From assembly GCA_021373185.1 (NCBI GenBank), contig JAJFTF010000005.1, forward strand, positions 10,572 through 74,571: a DNA stretch of 64,000 nucleotides, written 5' to 3'. The first letter of the stretch is position 1. Every line of letters starts with the position of its first letter. Position numbers and translations under genes: made by a program. Below are positions 18,596-35,967 of the stretch, in pieces. The notes under the pieces are model-generated. The model made no database searches. It was not told the origin of the DNA and was given only the letters and a program-made list of their open reading frames with translations. Source of the stretch: Betaproteobacteria bacterium (GTDB lineage Bacteria > Pseudomonadota > Gammaproteobacteria > Burkholderiales > Sulfuricellaceae).

Positions 18596-21124
18596 ATGGA
18601 AACGCCCTCAGGACACCCGTTTTTAAGACATCTTCCCGAAGAAATCGCAGGGTTGGCCGATCTCAGCCTTGATCTGGTCTGGACTTGGAGCCATGCGGCA
18701 GACCTTTTGTGGAAAGAGATGGCGCCCGCAGTCTGGGCGCAAACCCGCAATCCGTGGCTGATCCTGCAGAGCATTTCGCAAAAACATCTGGAGCAGTTGG
18801 CCAAGGACAGGAAATTTCGCGCCAGGATCGGGCAATTGATGCAGGCGCGGCACGATTATTCTTCGGCGCAAACCTGGTTTGGCAGCGTACACCCGGATAG
18901 CGATGTACTGGTCGCCTATTTCAGCATGGAATATGGCTTGGCGGAAGCGCTGCCGCTTTATTCCGGCGGATTGGGCGTGCTCGCCGGCGATCACCTGAAA
19001 ACCGCCAGCGATCTGGGCGTGCCGCTGGTTGCGGTGGGGCTTTTGTATCAGGAAGGCTATTTTCGCCAGATGCTCGATGCCCGTGGCCGGCAGCTTGAAA
19101 TCTATCCCTACAACATGCCCGCCAACATGCCGATCACTCCGGTGCGCGATGCCGATGGCGGCTGGCTCGGCGTGCCGATTGAACTGCCGGGGCGGACGCT
19201 GATTTTGCGTGCCTGGCAGGCGCAGGTGGGAAGGGTGAACCTGTACCTGCTGGACAGCAACGATCCGATGAACAGCCCCGCCGACCGCGGCATCACCGGC
19301 AAGCTGTATGGCGGCGGCGTGGAGATGCGTCTGGTGCAGGAGATCGTGCTCGGCGTCGGCGGCTGGCGGGTTCTCGGCGCGCTTGGCCTGCGCCCGGATG
19401 TCTGCCACCTCAACGAGGGTCACGCTGCCCTGGTGACGCTTGAACGGGCGCGGCAATTCATGCAGGACAATAATATCGATTTCCGGGAGGCGCTCTGGGC
19501 AACCCGCGCCGGCAACATATTTACCACTCACACTCCGGTTGCCGCTGCCTTCGATACTTTCCCGCTGGCCTTGCTGGCTGAGTATGGCGCGACGCATTAC
19601 GCCACGCAAATGGGCATTTCGCCGCAGGAACTGCTGGCCTTGGGCCGAAAGCATGCCGAAGCCGACGGCGAGTCGTTCAACATGGCTTATCTGGCCGCGC
19701 GCACCTGTGGCATGATCAACGGCGTGAGCCAACTGCACGGCACCGTCAGCCGCCGTATTTTTCAGGAGTTGTATCCGGGTTGGCCGCAGCGCGAGGTGCC
19801 CGTCGGCTATGTCACCAACGGCGTGCATGTTTCCTCATGGGATTCGTCCTGGGCGGACAAGATATGGACCGGCACCTGCGGCAAGGATCGCTGGCTGGGC
19901 ATGCCGGAAAAACTGTCATGCGCCATTCAGGCGTTGAGCGATGAGGCATTGTGGACCTTTCGCGCCGAGGAGCGGAGTGACCTGGTGCATTACGCGCGCC
20001 ACCGGCTGGCGCGCCAGCTCGGCCAGCGCGGCGAGGGCGCGGAAGCCATCGCGCAGGCCGGCGATATTCTGGACCCGAACGTACTCACGCTCGGCTTCGC
20101 CCGGCGTTTTACCGAATACAAACGGCCCAACCTGCTGCTGCACGATGCCGAGCGGCTGGCGCGCCTGCTCGCCGATCAGGTACGCCCGGTGCAGTTGATC
20201 GTCGCCGGCAAGGCCCATCCCCTGGACGAAACCGGCAAGCGGTTTATTCAAGCGTGGACGGAATTCTCGCGCCGCCCGGTGGTTCGTGCGCATGTGGTGT
20301 TTCTGGAAGATTACGACATGCATCTTGCGCAGGAGATGGTGCAAGGCGTGGATGTGTGGATCAATACCCCGCGCCGGCCATGGGAAGCCAGCGGCACCTC
20401 CGGTATGAAAGTGCTGGTCAATGGCGGCCTTAACCTTTCCGAACTGGACGGCTGGTGGGCCGAAGCCTACTCGCCGGAGGTCGGCTGGGCGCTGGGCGAT
20501 GGCATGGAACATGCCGAACCGGAATGGGACGATGAAGAAGCCGAACAGCTTTATCGCCTGCTGGAGCAGGAAATCGTGCCGATGTTTTATCGCCGCGATG
20601 CGCAGGGCATTCCGCGCGAGTGGACGGCGCGCATGCGCGCCAGCATGTCCCGGCTTGCGCCGCAGTTCAGCAGCAACCGCATGCTGCAGGATTATGTGCG
20701 TGACGCCTATCTTCCTGCGGCTGCAGCATACCGGCGGCGCAGTGCAGGCGGCGGCAGCCTGGCAAAAGATCTGGCCGCCTGGGAATTCAGCGTCAAGCGG
20801 CATTGGCACGAAATCCATCTGTCGAACATGGAAGTGCAGCCACGACCCGGCGGGTGGTTCTTTACGCTGCAGGTCTATCTGGGGGAGATCCCACCGGAAT
20901 TTGTGCGGGTGCAAATGTATGCCGATTCGCCGGACGATGATGCGGTGGCGGTGCAGGAAATGGAATGCCAGGCGGATATACCGGGTTCAATTCGTGGCTA
21001 CATCTACCGATGTTTTATCGCTACCGAGCGGCCTGTCGTCGATTTTACGCCACGGGTCATCGCCTGGCATCGGGAGGCCCGCATTCCGTCCGAGGTCAAT
21101 CTCATTCACTGGTTTTCAGATTGA
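18596..21124 (+). CDS. glgP: Alpha-glucan (glycogen) phosphorylase
   Basis: YSGGLGVLAGD, HLNEGH, FARRFTEYKR, EASGTSGMK PLP motif; ORF track start overlaps the tRNA, so ATG 18596 chosen. Confidence 0.95.
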   Translation: METPSGHPFLRHLPEEIAGLADLSLDLVWTWSHAADLLWKEMAPAVWAQTRNPWLILQSISQKHLEQLAKDRKFRARIGQLMQARHDYSSAQTWFGSVHPDSDVLVAYFSMEYGLAEALPLYSGGLGVLAGDHLKTASDLGVPLVAVGLLYQEGYFRQMLDARGRQLEIYPYNMPANMPITPVRDADGGWLGVPIELPGRTLILRAWQAQVGRVNLYLLDSNDPMNSPADRGITGKLYGGGVEMRLVQEIVLGVGGWRVLGALGLRPDVCHLNEGHAALVTLERARQFMQDNNIDFREALWATRAGNIFTTHTPVAAAFDTFPLALLAEYGATHYATQMGISPQELLALGRKHAEADGESFNMAYLAARTCGMINGVSQLHGTVSRRIFQELYPGWPQREVPVGYVTNGVHVSSWDSSWADKIWTGTCGKDRWLGMPEKLSCAIQALSDEALWTFRAEERSDLVHYARHRLARQLGQRGEGAEAIAQAGDILDPNVLTLGFARRFTEYKRPNLLLHDAERLARLLADQVRPVQLIVAGKAHPLDETGKRFIQAWTEFSRRPVVRAHVVFLEDYDMHLAQEMVQGVDVWINTPRRPWEASGTSGMKVLVNGGLNLSELDGWWAEAYSPEVGWALGDGMEHAEPEWDDEEAEQLYRLLEQEIVPMFYRRDAQGIPREWTARMRASMSRLAPQFSSNRMLQDYVRDAYLPAAAAYRRRSAGGGSLAKDLAAWEFSVKRHWHEIHLSNMEVQPRPGGWFFTLQVYLGEIPPEFVRVQMYADSPDDDAVAVQEMECQADIPGSIRGYIYRCFIATERPVVDFTPRVIAWHREARIPSEVNLIHWFSD

Positions 21125-30329: not shown

Positions 30330-31285
30330 GAATTTCGCTCACTCGACCCGAACAGCGCCAGCGCACGCAAGCACTCGGCGCGGTGTGCTGCGCCGTGTTG
30401 CGGCGGTAGTTCGATAGCGGGCAGGCGCAGGCCATAAGGCAGTTTTTGCGCGTCGGCATCCAGCACCCACCGCGCCAGGATCTCCAGTTTGCGCTCGGCA
30501 TGCACGGCGGGCAGCAGCGACCAGTCCAGCCAAAGCTCCTGTCCCTGCGGCGTGCTGAATTGCTTGACCTGCAAGCCCTGTTCGCGCGCCAGCGCTTTCC
30601 AGGCGATACGCGGCATGGCATCGCCGGCGACATAATTGCGCAGCCCGGAAAAATCTTCGTCGCCCGTCATGTTGAATGCACCCAGGCCGCTTTGTGTCAG
30701 GCTGGCGGGCAATGGCTGCGGCGCGGCAGGCTTGGGATAGACCAGGCAACGCACATCGAATTGCAGGTATGACCAGGCATGGAACAGGCCGAGCGGGTAT
30801 TCGGTAAACAGGGTCAGCCGCCCGCTGCTCAGCCAGCCGCGTTGAGGTGCCGGCAGCGGCAGCCGGACTTCGCTGGTGTGTTGCGCGGCAACGCCGAAGG
30901 TGACGCAATGCCTGCTATCGTCACGCAGGTTGAGGCTGAAGCGCGGCAGGGTGCTGGCGTTGTGGAAGTGAAACACGAACTGCGCCATGTCTCCGGCGAA
31001 CACAGAATCGACCCGGCCCGCGCTTATTTCCAGTTGCGCCATGTCGCGGAAGGCATGCAGCATGGTCATCAGGGCGGCGGTGCCGAGCAGGAAGGTGAGC
31101 ACGTAGCCCAGGCTCAGGTTGTAGTTGACGTCGCCCAGCAGCATCACCAGCAGCAGGACGGCAAAGCCGAAACCCTGGCGGGTGGGCAGGATGAAGATGC
31201 GGCGCTGGTTGAGCGTGACCGCGCCGCTGTCGATTTTTGGCCGGAACAGCCAAGTGCGGAATCGTTGTTTGAGTGCGGTCAGCAC
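30326..31285 (-). CDS. DUF58 protein
   Basis: DFSGLRNYVAGD...IAWKALAR motif; moxR-DUF58-TGase operon. Confidence 0.9.
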   Translation of the reverse strand: MLTALKQRFRTWLFRPKIDSGAVTLNQRRIFILPTRQGFGFAVLLLVMLLGDVNYNLSLGYVLTFLLGTAALMTMLHAFRDMAQLEISAGRVDSVFAGDMAQFVFHFHNASTLPRFSLNLRDDSRHCVTFGVAAQHTSEVRLPLPAPQRGWLSSGRLTLFTEYPLGLFHAWSYLQFDVRCLVYPKPAAPQPLPASLTQSGLGAFNMTGDEDFSGLRNYVAGDAMPRIAWKALAREQGLQVKQFSTPQGQELWLDWSLLPAVHAERKLEILARWVLDADAQKLPYGLRLPAIELPPQHGAAHRAECLRALALFGSSERNS

Positions 31286-31304
31286 GGGCGTGGGGTCTGT
31301 GCCT

Positions 31305-32222
31305 TCAGGGGATCGGCACGGCCTCGATCAGCGCTCTGGCAAGCTTGTCGCCATCCGATGCCTGCACATCCTGCACGCCTTGCAGGCGGTGGCTGGCGAC
31401 GCCCGGCAATACCGCCTGCACGTCTTCCGGCATCACCGCATTGCGTTCGTCCAGCAGCGCCCAGGCGCGCGCGGCGGCGATCAGCGACAGCCCAGCACGC
31501 GGCGACAGACCATGCACAAAGCGCGCCGATTCGCGGGTGTGGCGCAGGATGGCTTGCACGTAATCGAGCAGGGCGGGGGAAACGAAGACTTGTTTCACTT
31601 GCTGTTGCAGCGCCAGCAGTTCTGCGGCCTCCATCTGCGGCGCGAGGCCGGAGATGATCTCGCGCCGCTCCACGCCGGAGAGCAGGCCGCGCTCCGCCTG
31701 CGCATCCGGGTAGCCGAGCTGGATGCGCATCAGGAAGCGGTCGAGCTGCGATTCCGGCAGTGAAAAAGTGCCGATATGGTAAGTCGGGTTCTGCGTGGCG
31801 ATAACGAAGAATGGCGTCGGCAGCGGGCGCGTGACGCCCTCGATGGTCACCTGCTGCTCCTCCATCGCCTCCAGCAGCGCGCTTTGCGTTTTCGGTGTGG
31901 CGCGGTTGATCTCATCGGCCAGCACCATTTGCGCGAAGATCGGCCCGGCGTGGAACTTGAATTCGCCGCTGTCGCGCTGGTACACCGACACGCCGAGAAT
32001 GTCGGCGGGCAGCATGTCGCTGGTGAACTGGATGCGCTGGAACTGCAAGCCGAGCGAGCGAGCCAACCCATGTGCCAGTGTCGTCTTGCCGACACCCGGC
32101 AGATCCTCGATCAGCAAATGGCCGCGCGCCAGCAGGCAGGCCAGTGCCAGCCTGATCTGGTGCGGCTTGCCGAGGATGACCTGCTCGGCCTGGCGAATGA
32201 CGTTGCGCAGTGAATTGCTCAT
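31305..32222 (-). CDS. moxR: MoxR-family AAA+ ATPase
   Basis: EDLPGVGKT, ADEINRA, ATQNP, LPESQLDRF. Confidence 0.95.
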   Translation of the reverse strand: MSNSLRNVIRQAEQVILGKPHQIRLALACLLARGHLLIEDLPGVGKTTLAHGLARSLGLQFQRIQFTSDMLPADILGVSVYQRDSGEFKFHAGPIFAQMVLADEINRATPKTQSALLEAMEEQQVTIEGVTRPLPTPFFVIATQNPTYHIGTFSLPESQLDRFLMRIQLGYPDAQAERGLLSGVERREIISGLAPQMEAAELLALQQQVKQVFVSPALLDYVQAILRHTRESARFVHGLSPRAGLSLIAAARAWALLDERNAVMPEDVQAVLPGVASHRLQGVQDVQASDGDKLARALIEAVPIP

Positions 32223-32274
32223 GGTGATGGCCTGTGAATTGGTTTTATGGAAAACAGTTTAGCCACGGATCAAT
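32186..32274. repeat. Copy A of about 90-bp direct repeat (moxR leader plus first 12 codons)
   Basis: Aligns to 32755-32845 with about 7 differences. Confidence 0.9.
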
Positions 32275-32704
32275 GCGCGTACACCAGCTTGAGAATTGGT
32301 CTTCGACCGGCAACATGCAACCGAATAAAAATTTTCCGCCCGTTTAACACCTTGTGTCCCCAAGAAAAATAATTGGCGTCGGTGAAATGTAGCGTATGAG
32401 TGGCATACGGTTCCAGCCGACGGTCACCAGAATCAAAGTCTGCGCTTCCAAAGGACTCGAAACTTTTTAGCGGCCAACGACCGGAACAATAGAGAAGTTC
32501 CCAGTACGTGAGAATGAGCGGGCGATTTGAAAGGTTACGGATAAAAATTTCATTGCCAACGCTTTCACTACCCGTGAAGTTGTAGCTGACGTCAACGCGA
32601 AAGCGATCTCGCCAGAGTTCAAGGAGCTTGACGATTGCAAGCAGCGTGGAGAGACCCGCACCCCACCAAGCAATTAGTGTCGATCCAGATTCAGCAGCAC
32701 ACAT
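32270..32704 (-). CDS. Hypothetical protein (about 144 aa, one N-terminal TM)
   Basis: AT-richer ORF; ATG 32704 preferred; the longer in-frame extension runs through the duplicated moxR start. Confidence 0.6.
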   Translation of the reverse strand: MCAAESGSTLIAWWGAGLSTLLAIVKLLELWRDRFRVDVSYNFTGSESVGNEIFIRNLSNRPLILTYWELLYCSGRWPLKSFESFGSADFDSGDRRLEPYATHTLHFTDANYFSWGHKVLNGRKIFIRLHVAGRRPILKLVYAH

Positions 32705-32725
32705 ATGATGACGCCCCATCAAAGC

Positions 32726-32750
32726 ATCAAAGGGGCCTGGCCCCTTTGAT
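32726..32750. repeat. 25-nt palindrome ATCAAAGGGGCC-T-GGCCCCTTTGAT
   Basis: Perfect 12-bp arms; sister motif at 32840-32864. Confidence 0.85.
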
Positions 32751-32754
32751 TGTA

Positions 32755-32845
32755 CGGCCTGGCGGATGACGTTGCGTAGTGAATCGCTCATGGTGATGGC
32801 CTGTGAATTGGTCTTATATAGAAAACAGTTTAGCCATGGATCAAT
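32755..32845. repeat. Copy B of moxR 5' duplication (encodes MSDSLRNVIRQA)
   Basis: See copy A. Confidence 0.9.
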
Positions 32846-32864
32846 CGAGTCTGACCCCATTGAT
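32840..32864. repeat. 25-nt imperfect palindrome ATCAATCGAGTC-T-GACCCCATTGAT
   Basis: Same length and architecture as 32726-32750. Confidence 0.7.
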
Positions 32865-32904
32865 TCATTCGTATGTTGATGATGATCTGAGATTCAGGAT
32901 GCGT

Positions 32905-32946
32905 ATTCATAAGGCGCCCAGCGTCCGGTGGAATGATGGGTTATGC
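32905..32946 (-). mobile_element. Truncated attC site (left arm) at end of PIN cassette
   Basis: GCATAAC (contains the TAA stop)-CCATC-ATTCCACC-GGACGCTG; right arm and GTTRRRY not recognisable. Confidence 0.65.
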
Positions 32947-33759
32947 ATCGGATTTCGTAAGGTCTTCGAAGTCCGCAAGAATTTCCGCTAACAGCTTTTC
33001 CTCTTCCTCTTCCATTTCCTTCGTGACGGCAGCATGGACAATCTTTAGGCCTGCCGATAGCTTGTCGGTAAGGATTATTTTTCTCTTCTTGCTTACGCGC
33101 TCGCTGAATTCTTGTTTGAGCCAGTCATTCAGGTAGGATTTGCCATCGTAGGTCGCTCCGTAATCTGTGTCCCGAGTGACTATTACGACGTGCTTTCCGC
33201 TGTCAGCCGAGCATTTAACAATCCACTCCCAGTTCACTGCATCACCAATGGATGTGTCGGCCTGCTTTCTTGGCGGATAGCCAAGTGTGAAGCGCTTTCT
33301 GGCTAAGTTTCTTACCGAAATGCGCTCCTTCTTTGAACGAGAAAGGTTGAATGGTGAATCGTTTTTGAAGATGCGCTGTAGAGTTTGATACACAGGGTCA
33401 TGATGCGTTGGGTTACTGAGAACAGCTTGAATTTTTTCGTTGACCTTTTTGTGTTGCGCAATAAGTTCCTTCTTCTTCTTTTCGATCATCTTCGTTGCTT
33501 GGAGGTCGGCAACGAGTGCGGGAACTGTAAGCTTTCCCCAGTCCGGGGCAGTGAAGTTGTTCAGTGACTCAACAATGACACGTTGGCGGTTTTTCTTGTA
33601 CTCCATCTCGATTTGGGAGCCAACGATCAGCCGATCCTTGCAGGCTTCCAACTGCTCAAGATATTTGGTGCTGATGTCAGTCTTCCTGATTCGGTAGAAA
33701 TCTAAGAGGACATTGGTATCAACAAAGAGAAGTGTATCGAGCACCGCTTCAACAGCCAT
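32941..33759 (-). CDS. PIN-domain protein (PIN_8/DUF4935-like), integron-cassette-type gene
   Basis: FVDTNVLLDFY, IGDAVNWEW, VTRDTDY acidic PIN motifs. Confidence 0.8.
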   Translation of the reverse strand: MAVEAVLDTLLFVDTNVLLDFYRIRKTDISTKYLEQLEACKDRLIVGSQIEMEYKKNRQRVIVESLNNFTAPDWGKLTVPALVADLQATKMIEKKKKELIAQHKKVNEKIQAVLSNPTHHDPVYQTLQRIFKNDSPFNLSRSKKERISVRNLARKRFTLGYPPRKQADTSIGDAVNWEWIVKCSADSGKHVVIVTRDTDYGATYDGKSYLNDWLKQEFSERVSKKRKIILTDKLSAGLKIVHAAVTKEMEEEEEKLLAEILADFEDLTKSDA

Positions 33760-33776
33760 TGGTGTCTCCTAGAGAT

Positions 33777-33845
33777 GCATAATGTTAAGTTGAGGGGCTG
33801 ACGCGGGCTGCTTCGCGGCAGTCCAGCTCGAACGTTAGGTTAACC
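33777..33845 (-). mobile_element. Degenerate attC recombination site (69 bp)
   Basis: Minus strand GGTTAAC-CTAAC-GTTCGAGC...CCTCAAC-TTAAC-ATTATGC with extra C and A on the 5' arm; followed by AGGAG RBS and ATG. Confidence 0.7.
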
Positions 33846-33859
33846 TGAGAAAAGTCGTT

Positions 33860-33909
33860 CATTGATAATCCGTGTGCATCGGTGTTAATCCGTGGATAAA
33901 AGCGGTTTT
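33860..33909. repeat. Right-type ATCCGTG repeat arm
   Basis: cattgataatccgtgtgcatcggtgttaatccgtgga matches the reverse complement of 22019-22055 at 33/37 positions by eye. Confidence 0.85.
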
Positions 33910-33951
33910 TCAATTTATTCAGTATAGGCGCATGACGCAGTATCGAATGGG

Positions 33952-34878
33952 CTAGAAATTTGCCGCTTCAGCCTCTAGGTAAGCCCGGCTGATATCGCTG
34001 CCGATGTTCTCCTCATATCCCTTGAGCTTTTTCCACTCGGCGAGGTTCAGGGTGTTGCGCACTTCACTGTCGTTCAGGCCTTTCTTGTAGCCCGATTCCA
34101 CGCCGGCATAGAAATCGGCGATGAGCTTGTGCAGCTTGGCGACATCCGCCTGATTCATCAGCGGCCCGTGCCCCGGTATGATGGCCACGGTATCGAATTT
34201 CTGCACCTGTTCCAGCGCGGCGATCCAGTTTCTGACGTAGCCGTCGCGCATCACCGGCACGGTGGTGTTGACCAGTATGTCGCCGCCGATCAGCACCTTG
34301 TCGTCCGGCAGATAGACCATCATGTCGCCCGCCGTGTGCGAGCCGCGCGGTACCCACAGCAGCATCTTCACGCCTTGCAGGCTACGGTCGTTGCGGCTTT
34401 CTTCCTTGAACGTGACGGTGGCCGGCATCGGGTGGGTATTGGGGAATTTCCGCCCAATCATGTTCTCCATCAACTGCACCCACTCGTCGCCGGTTTTCTC
34501 CACCCATATTCTGCATTGCTCCGAGCTCAATATCACCGCGCCAGGAAACGCCACGTTGCCGAGGATGTGGTCGCCGTGGTGGTGGGTGTTGATGATGTGG
34601 GTAACGGGTTTGGGGGTGATTTTCGCAATCGTTCTGGCGATGTTCTTGCCGACTTCATCGGTTGCGCCGGTATCCACCAGAATCACTCCCTTGTCGCCGA
34701 TGATTACGGTGCTGTTCACCATGTAGCCCTGGTTATGGCTGCTGGGTTGTCCCATCGGCCCGAGCAGGGCATAAACGCGAGCGTTGATCTTCACCACCTT
34801 GGGCTCGGGCATTTTGGTTTTTGCCCAGGCGCCGGAGGCGAGAAGCAAAACAAACAGGGTAAGAATGATTCGCTTCAT
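33952..34878 (-). CDS. Periplasmic MBL-fold metallo-hydrolase (SoxH-like)
   Basis: Signal peptide MKRIILTLF; THHHGDH, GSHTAGD, IPGHG motifs; ATG 34878. Confidence 0.85.
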   Translation of the reverse strand: MKRIILTLFVLLLASGAWAKTKMPEPKVVKINARVYALLGPMGQPSSHNQGYMVNSTVIIGDKGVILVDTGATDEVGKNIARTIAKITPKPVTHIINTHHHGDHILGNVAFPGAVILSSEQCRIWVEKTGDEWVQLMENMIGRKFPNTHPMPATVTFKEESRNDRSLQGVKMLLWVPRGSHTAGDMMVYLPDDKVLIGGDILVNTTVPVMRDGYVRNWIAALEQVQKFDTVAIIPGHGPLMNQADVAKLHKLIADFYAGVESGYKKGLNDSEVRNTLNLAEWKKLKGYEENIGSDISRAYLEAEAANF

Positions 34879-35911: not shown

Positions 35912-35967
35912 GTAGGAGCGGCCTTGGCCGCGATATTGGCGGTTATCGCGGCCAAGGCCGCTCCTAC
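35912..35967. repeat. GTAG-type REP doublet
   Basis: GTAGGAGCGGCCTTGGCCGCGATA-N8-TATCGCGGCCAAGGCCGCTCCTAC, perfect 24-bp inverted repeat. Confidence 0.9.

Follow-up and report, generated by a model that had tools for sequence, protein, structure and literature searches.

Repetitive extragenic palindromic sequences (REPs) have long been known as places where tandem duplications are joined (Shyamala et al. 1990, in the account of that work given in PMC11708052). The enzyme TnpA-REP cleaves beside REP hairpins, and the resulting covalent 5′-phosphotyrosine link is resolved by any attacking 3′-OH (PMC8266576). A separate kind of system is the CALIN (cluster of attC sites lacking integron-integrase), in which integron cassettes lie without an integrase. 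Here we describe a locus that resembles each of these in part. It lies in a 64,000-nucleotide stretch (the window) of the 2.77-Mb genome of a member of the Gallionellaceae, deposited as Betaproteobacteria bacterium (GCA_021373185.1, contig JAJFTF010000005.1, positions 10,572 to 74,571), where the leader and first 12 codons of moxR, the gene for a MoxR ATPase, occur twice, on either side of a small open reading frame (ORF) that we call the cargo. The initial annotation took this 570-bp module for a discrete mini-element, bounded by two palindromic ends, that had inserted into the 5′ end of moxR. What we find instead is no new mobile element but a scar left by rearrangement, at that edge of a stranded cassette remnant which faces moxR. 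The scar is made of known kinds of element: a stranded cassette, REPs of the type associated with REP-associated tyrosine transposases (RAYTs) and IS200-like enzymes, and a small segmental duplication. Its parts, with positions in the window, are as follows.

31305 to 32222, minus strand: moxR, intact, 305 aa, an AAA_3 MoxR ATPase (Pfam AAA_3 2.9e-62, with AAA_lid_2)
32186 to 32274, minus strand: copy A, the functional moxR leader (52 nt) with 12 codons and 1 nt
32270 to 32704, minus strand: the cargo, a 144-aa integron-cassette ORF with an N-terminal transmembrane helix and an immunoglobulin (Ig)-like beta-sandwich
32705 to 32717, minus strand: the cassette 5′ end, (T)GGGGCGTCATCAT, placed by alignment with four homologous cassettes
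32718 to 32754, minus strand: a mini REP unit made of TAC (32754-32752), AATCAAAGGGGCCAGGCCCCTTTGAT (A at 32751, then pal1 at 32726-32750) and the tail GCTTTGAT (32725-32718)
32755 to 32845, minus strand: copy B, an orphan moxR leader with 12 codons (MSDSLRNVIRQA), in frame with the cargo
32840 to 32864, minus strand: pal2, a REP-type imperfect palindrome, multi-copy in relatives
32865 to 32900, minus strand: a 36-nt AT-rich spacer, unique (no second copy in the genome)

The duplication is clear. In a genome-wide blastn search, which revealed no third copy, copies A and B are 91.2% identical over 91 nt (E=7e-29); their starts are 569-571 nt apart, and they differ by six substitutions and one 2-nt indel. 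The coding differences are those first listed in the initial annotation, namely one replacement (AAT/GAT, N/D) and two silent changes (CTG/CTA and ATT/ATC). Copy B carries most of the derived states: ATCCATG against the consensus of the repeat from which the leader starts (described below), CTA against CTG, and an Asp at position 3 where relatives have Asn, this Asp being absent from the 120 listed relatives. Copy A has a single derived state, ATT, where relatives and copy B have ATC. So polarised, the differences fit decay of an orphan copy B as well as they fit an imported allele. Downstream of copy A, moxR is intact with an N-terminus of ancestral type (MSNSL, in agreement with relatives).

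Copy B is bracketed to the nucleotide by the two 25-nt palindromes, pal2 on one side and pal1 on the other. Both palindromes, pal1 (ATCAAAGGGGCCAGGCCCCTTTGAT) and pal2 (ATCAATGGGGTCAGACTCGATTGAT), are present where first reported, and a scan of the window with a degenerate palindrome pattern matched only these two (four strand-wise matches, against 0.00 expected from 100 shuffles). They do not, however, delimit the 570 bp, since only pal1 lies inside the 570-bp period. In single-stranded form pal1 makes a strong hairpin (−11.8 kcal/mol, z −3.2). The genome has only about 10 palindromes of the pal1/pal2 type, so finding two of them at the exact limits of copy B implies a causal link rather than chance.

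Both palindromes lead to a Y1 (HUH) transposase gene on another contig of the same genome, C44. The 17-nt left half of pal1 is identical to the left-end motif of this gene. The gene has AATCAAAGGGGCCAGGCTCGATT on one flank and GAGCCTGGCCCCTTTTATTG on the other, in inverted orientation, and pal1 fuses the 17-nt left half of the former to the right-half type of the latter. The TTTGAT-repeat tail of the pal1 unit resembles the right end of the C44 gene, a copy at C13:10276 and the copies in the related genome G005. The sequence AAAGGGGCCAGGCTC, inverted about the C44 gene, is found in the same arrangement around homologues that are 88-92% identical, in genomes G015 and G005. For its part, pal2 lies on both sides of a Y1 homologue in G019:C33 and, with one copy, next to that in G024:C99. 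The 24-30-nt matches to pal2 in relatives, which span several genera of the family, are 88-100% identical, many of them 100%, and occur as single copies, inverted pairs and nested partial copies. An 851-nt query gave 9 matches in G019 and 17 in G024, nearly all at pal2. We conclude that the palindromes are in all likelihood REP-type repeats of a RAYT/IS200-like Y1 (HUH) transposase family; the Y1-HUH link suggested in the initial annotation is thus borne out by flanking copies in the same genome and in relatives. The core AAAGGGGCCWGGCCCCTTTGAT was also seen after genes in unrelated phyla, with a small cluster in one betaproteobacterial metagenome-assembled genome (MAG; loci L164-L167), so the pal1 core alone is not diagnostic of this REP family. 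Two other ideas about the palindromes were discarded: they are not attC sites, as an attC model gave no match there, and a candidate cleavage or target motif (CCGAC/TAC) at REP 5′ flanks was dropped, the flanks of about 30 copies being merely A-rich. A promoter and terminator scan called neither a sigma-70-like promoter nor a terminator at the leader or pal1. The pal1 hairpin may block read-through into the cargo cassette.

The C44 Y1 protein has 236 aa and scores 53.5 bits on Pfam Y1_Tnp (cut-off 23). Its gene stands at the distal end of a complete integron (C44:26800-32265), in which the integrase gene intI (31213-32265) is followed by about six cassettes and then by the RAYT-like Y1 gene. 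In at least four genomes the Y1 gene lies inside cassette arrays, with attC matches beside the homologues at E values of 1e-13 to 5e-4. Homologous Y1 genes, with GGGGYCAGRC palindromes on their flanks, were seen between attC sites at L134/L156 (G015:C3), L135, L154 (G005) and L147 (G019:C33). Such placement means that the transposase family is resident in the cassette arrays of several Gallionellaceae. The gene has 3-7 matches in G015 and G005, and three tandem copies in G015 form 1108-nt repeats that are 99.9% identical. The family behaves like an insertion sequence, with a gene that is multi-copy in some genomes and a low-copy repeat.

Joints of the same architecture occur at other sites. 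On C44, a 329-nt repeat (98% identity, 331-nt period) has the order REP, leader and codons 1-94, then GA, then REP, leader and full gene. In G005:C57 a transposase gene is cut off near codon 113 and abuts TAA-AATCAAAGGGGCC. G024:C88 (L033, 6900-7800) has a 232-nt tandem direct repeat, 95.6% identical, with pal2 ending each unit. Palindromes related to pal1 and pal2 thus recur at other truncation and duplication joints, which speaks against the early doubt that they might not be enriched at insertion junctions. In addition, attC sites at C41:102891, in G024 and in G018 are broken up by REP-like GGGGTCAG units. At C41:102870-102960 a GNAT-type gene is followed by an attC site whose loop holds a near-copy of pal2 (ATCAATAGGGTCAGACTCGATTGAT) and whose 5′ half is nearly identical to that of an attC in the array on C44; here, too, a cassette lies stranded, and a REP sits within its attC.

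The remnant at moxR extends beyond the module. Between 32230 and 34000 the GC content falls from about 0.64 to about 0.48, and the 1.6 kb of low-GC DNA is what is left of two cassettes, in the order attC, PIN_12 cassette, degenerate attC, cargo. The further features of the region are these.

32901 to 32946, minus strand: attC1, the degenerate attC of the PIN_12 cassette (attC model 12.5 bits, E=0.45)
32941 to 33759, minus strand: the PIN_12 nuclease cassette ORF, 272 aa (Pfam PIN_12 1.8e-25)
33777 to 33845, minus strand: attC0 (attC model 39.6 bits, E=2.3e-7)
33846 to 33917, minus strand: the opposite arm of the native ATCCGTG repeat doublet (about 50 blastn matches in the genome, and the anatomy of a doublet)
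35085 to 33952, minus strand: a gene of the metallo-beta-lactamase (MBL) fold

The attC sites were assigned with a covariance model built here from 21 attC sites of related arrays and this genome. Searched against the window at E≤10, it gave three matches, of which the best two are attC0 and attC1 (the third reached 7.5 bits, E=6.7). attC0 is 93.7% identical over 63 nt to a canonical attC at C11:18646-18708 and is complete, except that the G of its R′ core is replaced by A (ACATTATGC instead of ACGTTATGC). attC1 has lost its R′ core; its R″ box (GCATAAC) and both L boxes are kept, and over its 5′ half it agrees fully with attC sites of relatives. The PIN_12 cassette spans from TTATGC to the complementary GCATAAC. 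Both cassettes, one for a PIN_12 nuclease and the other for the 144-aa membrane-anchored beta-sandwich protein, are promoterless and on the same strand. The integrase of the genome is the one on C44 (TIGR02249, 490 bits against a cut-off of 265), which has a cassette array beside it and is the only match in the genome above the family cut-off; no recognisable intI was found among the ORFs listed around the island. Canonical attC sites at C11:10312-10379 and 18646-18708 were also seen, and belong either to a further cassette cluster or to a continuation of the C44 array.

The cargo itself has 206 homologues, the best 86% identical (149-aa query beginning at MGRHH). Most of those listed are 144 aa long and align with about 97% of the query, which sets the family start at MCAAESG, with its ATG at 32704. 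All homologues that were looked up in longer contigs stand in one-directional arrays of 10-15 small ORFs, toxin-antitoxin cassettes among them, separated by 60-90-nt sites of the form RYYYAAC...GTTRRRY; by these features the arrays are integron cassette arrays. In a nucleotide alignment the cargo homology starts at (T)GGGGCGTCA/(T)GGGGCGTCATCAT-ATG, against G^TTGGGCGTCA/G^TTGGGCGTCAYCAT-ATG in four homologous cassettes (here and below a caret marks the crossover point or joint). The cargo 5′ boundary is therefore at most 1-2 nt from the canonical IntI crossover point G^TT, with the second T changed to G. At the other end the homology stops at the stop codon. The attC, which follows 1-2 nt after the stop in relatives, is gone, and the moxR leader stands in its place; neither the attC model nor the nucleotide alignment found an attC downstream of the cargo. 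We thus regard the cargo as a cassette remnant that is no longer a mobilisable cassette. The AlphaFold model (predicted local distance difference test score, pLDDT, 88.6) places an N-terminal transmembrane helix before an Ig-like beta-sandwich, a search of the PDB with this model returned generic Ig-like folds only, with nothing informative, and the protein has no Pfam or NCBIfam match.

The possible fusion of copy B with the cargo can now be put in proportion. The ORF at 32270-32860 (minus strand, 196 aa) is indeed open from the copy B ATG (32791) into the cargo, with MSDSLRNVIRQA in frame, and public gene calls give a product of 173 or 196 aa. The proposed fusion start, however, lies 29 codons (12 + 17) upstream of the conserved cassette start, and the called 'fusion' would be the 144-aa cassette protein preceded by a moxR pseudo-start. 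By a rough estimate, 17 linker codons would be in frame and free of stops by chance with a probability of about 0.1-0.15, so the open linker is suggestive at most of a real fusion. As a side effect of the rearrangement, a promoterless cargo now lies behind a second moxR leader and start codon, in frame.

The native frame in which all of this happened is visible in the leader. The first 21 nt of copy A, ATCCGTGGCTAAACTGTTTTC, are the last heptad and tail of an arm of the ATCCGTG repeat, the commonest repeat of the genome (ATCCGTGGCTAAACTGTTTTC has 28 genome sites at ≤4 mismatches). Its arms consist of three heptads ending in GGCTAAACTGTTTTT and usually form inverted doublets around variable centres of 30-90 nt; in the window they lie at 33846-33917, 32251-32274, 32822-32845, about 22027, 22680 and 22975. 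The arm at 33917-33846 adjoins the MBL-fold gene and coincides with the left edge of the low-GC island in the GC profile. With this arm at one end and ATCCGTGGCTAAACTGTTTTC in the moxR leader at the other, the whole low-GC island lies inside one ancestral ATCCGTG doublet. All genes of the region share the minus strand, with the MBL-fold gene on one side of the island and moxR on the other. Leaders A and B are both cut off at the same point, ATTG^ATCC, so the truncation of the heptad predates the duplication.

How did the scar arise? Its four joints read as follows.

J1, pal2 ...CGATTGAT^CC, then leader B: read as the native REP-leader junction
J2, ...CAGGCCG^TAC^AATCAAAGG: base 1 of moxR codon 13 joined 3 nt ahead of pal1
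J3, ...GCTTTGA^TGGGGCGTC: the REP tail against the canonical cassette start
J4, ...GCGCATTGAT^CC, then leader A: the cassette stop region joined to the leader

J4 falls within 4-6 nt of microhomology (ATTGAT) with the right arm of pal2. The ATCAAT half-site that had been noted at the cargo stop is there, at 32269-32274, overlapping the TGA (32270-32272), but it is this microhomology and not the terminus of an element. CAT-TGA at the cargo end may even be native to the cassette, because seven of 120 cargo homologues end in His.

The origin that we prefer, at even chances of being right, is a REP-linked join or template switch that copied the leader and 12 codons twice. The ancestral state would have been pal2-leader-moxR. 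During replication, the strand that had copied the leader and 12 codons would have been joined to the 5′ edge of the pal1 REP unit, ahead of the cargo cassette, either by the cleavage and strand transfer of a Y1 enzyme or by template switching provoked by a hairpin. It would then have rejoined the chromosome at the ATTGAT of the pal2 right arm, so that the leader and 12 codons were copied again. Copy A would have been kept under selection as the start of moxR while copy B decayed. A classical unequal crossover between REPs was also considered and dropped, as it would require a REP inside an intact moxR.

Several points weigh against this origin. The main weakness is that copies A and B have diverged by about 7%, against about 2% at the C44 duplicate, so that a duplication in situ would have to be old, or else the allele was imported. 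No empty-site, donor or intermediate allele was found, and the order of events is a reconstruction only. The pal2 hairpin is weak (−4.4 kcal/mol, z −0.8), and the pal1 core, AAAGGGGCC-N-GGCCCCTTT, is found in unrelated phyla too, in hairpins that resemble terminators. TTGAT precedes three of the four joints, yet about 30 REP copies have no cleavage or target sequence in common in their 5′ flanks. The C44 Y1 protein stays below the NCBIfam cut-offs, with 63.5 bits on REP_Tyr_transpos (cut-off 80) and 17 bits on transpos_IS200 (cut-off 55), and Y1 activity at these edges is putative. Finally, the locus would look no different if the REPs had come in after the rearrangement and had taken no part in it.

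If the allele was imported, a fragment of a related strain, carrying pal1, the cargo and that strain's own leader and 12 codons, would have entered through 90 nt of homology. The fragment could have been circular or linear, and its entry either a single crossover (Campbell type) or homology-facilitated illegitimate recombination. Copy B would then be the resident 5′ end, copy A the donor allele, and the REPs would mark the fragment end only. We consider this possible but doubtful. A divergence of about 7% is easily read as an allelic difference, the structure is exactly that expected from a single crossover of a 570-bp circle, the ATT state of copy A is unlike relatives and copy B, and the composition of the island is foreign. 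On the other hand, a 570-bp circle is very small, and the donor would have to share both the truncated heptad and the ATTGAT^CC junction upstream of it, which amounts to several prior events. It would also leave unexplained why the fragment ends at a REP edge, as the joints at C44 and G005:C57 do. Nor did any donor appear among 519 moxR-encoding metagenome stretches, the 80 best of which were taken as loci, or among the 120 closest MoxR proteins, which are ≤93% identical and include one (P0130) with the same N-terminus. In the 80 metagenome loci (≤93% amino-acid identity) and in 40 related genomes, the moxR leaders are unalignable and the upstream genes differ. The exact leader pattern had zero matches in metagenome contigs, and exact look-ups of the moxR, PIN_12 and MBL proteins returned the same haplotype only.

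The microhomology at J4 would also suit plain replication slippage, or tandem duplication and subsequent deletion at microhomologies, with the REPs inserted later in a non-coding, permissive scar and playing no causal part. REPs of this family do land in many intergenic sites and attC loops. Such a history would, however, require two independent late insertions to hit exactly both ends of copy B, and the same REP-edge joints are found at C44 and G005:C57, inside coding sequence. We think it unlikely.

The reading of the module as a mobile mini-element, a discrete 570 bp with palindromic termini that transposed into moxR at codon 12-13 and brought a replacement 5′ end, fares worse and strikes us as improbable. 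It draws on real features of the Y1/IS200-like family, whose members move as single strands with hairpin ends and leave no target duplication; ISDra2, for one, inserts 3′ of TTGAT (PMC2806898, PMC8612924), the motif that precedes three of the joints here, and aberrant cleavage at a right end could capture flanking moxR sequence. Yet blastn and tblastn searches found no second copy of the module or cargo in the genome, no such unit was seen in the 40 relatives, and the cargo has the history of an integron cassette with a canonical IntI boundary. Of the two supposed ends, pal2 lies outside the 570-bp period, and the right one is a 6-nt half-site that is explained as well by the cassette stop region, given the homologues ending in His. 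ATTGAT also adjoins some ATCCGTG repeat arms, and the REP flanks share no target.

An assembly artefact, such as a collapsed or chimeric repeat, is very unlikely even though the genome is a 55-contig draft and probably a MAG, because the copies differ at seven positions and an identical locus stands in three or four separate public assemblies: a GenBank MAG contig (GCA_039683015.1) and the independently assembled Logan contigs of SRR15035646 and SRR15035648, all 100% identical, and that of SRR15035647 (L161), identical through the module. The final 64 nt of L161 (window 32015-31952, inside moxR) have 11 mismatches to the window, probably because the assembly graph passes there into a related strain or species that co-occurs.

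A few observations from the surroundings may be added. A perfect 24-nt inverted pair, GTAGGAGCGGCCTTGGCCGCGATA and TATCGCGGCCAAGGCCGCTCCTAC, 8 nt apart, lies at window 35912-35967 between a DmsC-like and a 4Fe-4S gene; it is a GTAG-tagged REP doublet of a different family. An Rfam scan of 32000-34100 found no known RNA. In the metagenome relative L162, whose moxR is 91% identical, an additional 165-aa ORF stands between moxR and a DUF58 gene, which makes the moxR operon a recurrent insertion site in relatives.

What the locus offers at present is mainly an annotation correction, that of the 173/196-aa ORF. It also shows integron cassettes becoming fixed outside integrons, at a place where three hairpin-based systems (attC sites, Y1-transposase REPs and a native heptad repeat doublet) meet in 1.7 kb. 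If REP edges are in truth active joints, they would provide a concrete and testable route by which HUH enzymes make small segmental duplications, and promoterless genes would be put under host expression signals in the same way. As a speculation with rather little probability in our own view, the RAYT-like Y1 family of Gallionellaceae, resident in sedentary integron arrays, might act through its REP hairpins on single-stranded hairpins at cassette borders. Cleavage at a REP edge and transfer to a nascent strand would then leave cassettes stranded outside the integron, give a neighbouring host gene a second 5′ control region and plug a promoterless cassette into the leader and start codon of that gene (here as the in-frame moxR-cargo fusion), without inactivating it. 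The part most worth following is the integron-resident Y1/REP family, with its recurrence at attC sites and duplication joints.

Among described systems, the remnant may be compared with CALIN. As there, small promoterless ORFs lie in one orientation with TTRRRY...RYYYAAC boundaries, one attC is complete and one degenerate, homologues stand in large sedentary arrays, and IntI is elsewhere in the genome. Unlike in CALIN, the moxR-proximal cassette here has no attC at all and is fused to the leader of a host gene, and a 5′ fragment of that gene, together with REPs, lies between the two cassettes. The core G of attC0 being mutated, the cluster is probably frozen.

The palindromes compare with REPs and REP doublets forming hairpins (REPINs) and their RAYTs (REPtrons; E. 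coli TnpA-REP and the Pseudomonas RAYT groups). In common are 25-nt imperfect palindromes that are conserved across genera, occur as single, inverted-doublet and nested partial copies, flank a Y1-HUH gene in inverted orientation and serve as duplication join points. The palindromes here differ in lacking the GTAG or CGTC foot tag of the classes described in PMC3733652; their feet are ATCAA...TTGAT and (R)A-ATCAAW. They are not high-copy, with about 10 in this genome and at least 9-17 in relatives. Several copies of the Y1 gene occur in some relatives, the gene lies within integron arrays (compare the RAYT groups in PMC5581495), and its protein falls below the NCBIfam RAYT cut-off.

With IS200/IS605 elements and their miniature derivatives (PATEs; ISDra2, with target TTGAT, and IS608) the locus shares a Y1 transposase with the HUH motif (HVH), hairpin ends, the absence of a target duplication, TTGAT at joints, and a 34-nt pal1 unit with the look of a left and a right end fused together. 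Here, though, TTGAT is part of the hairpin stem and not a flanking target, there is no tnpB, the 236-aa protein reaches just 17 bits on the IS200 model, and there is no sign that the 570-bp module itself moves; the ISDra2 target (PMC2806898) may serve as a lead only. Homology-facilitated illegitimate recombination is alike in having homology on one side and an illegitimate joint on the other. In the tandem duplications mediated by REPs (Shyamala, Schneider and Ames 1990), too, a segment of the host is duplicated and a REP marks the join; the present scar differs in that a foreign cassette separates the copies, the duplicated length is only 91 nt and the join is not a hybrid of two REPs.

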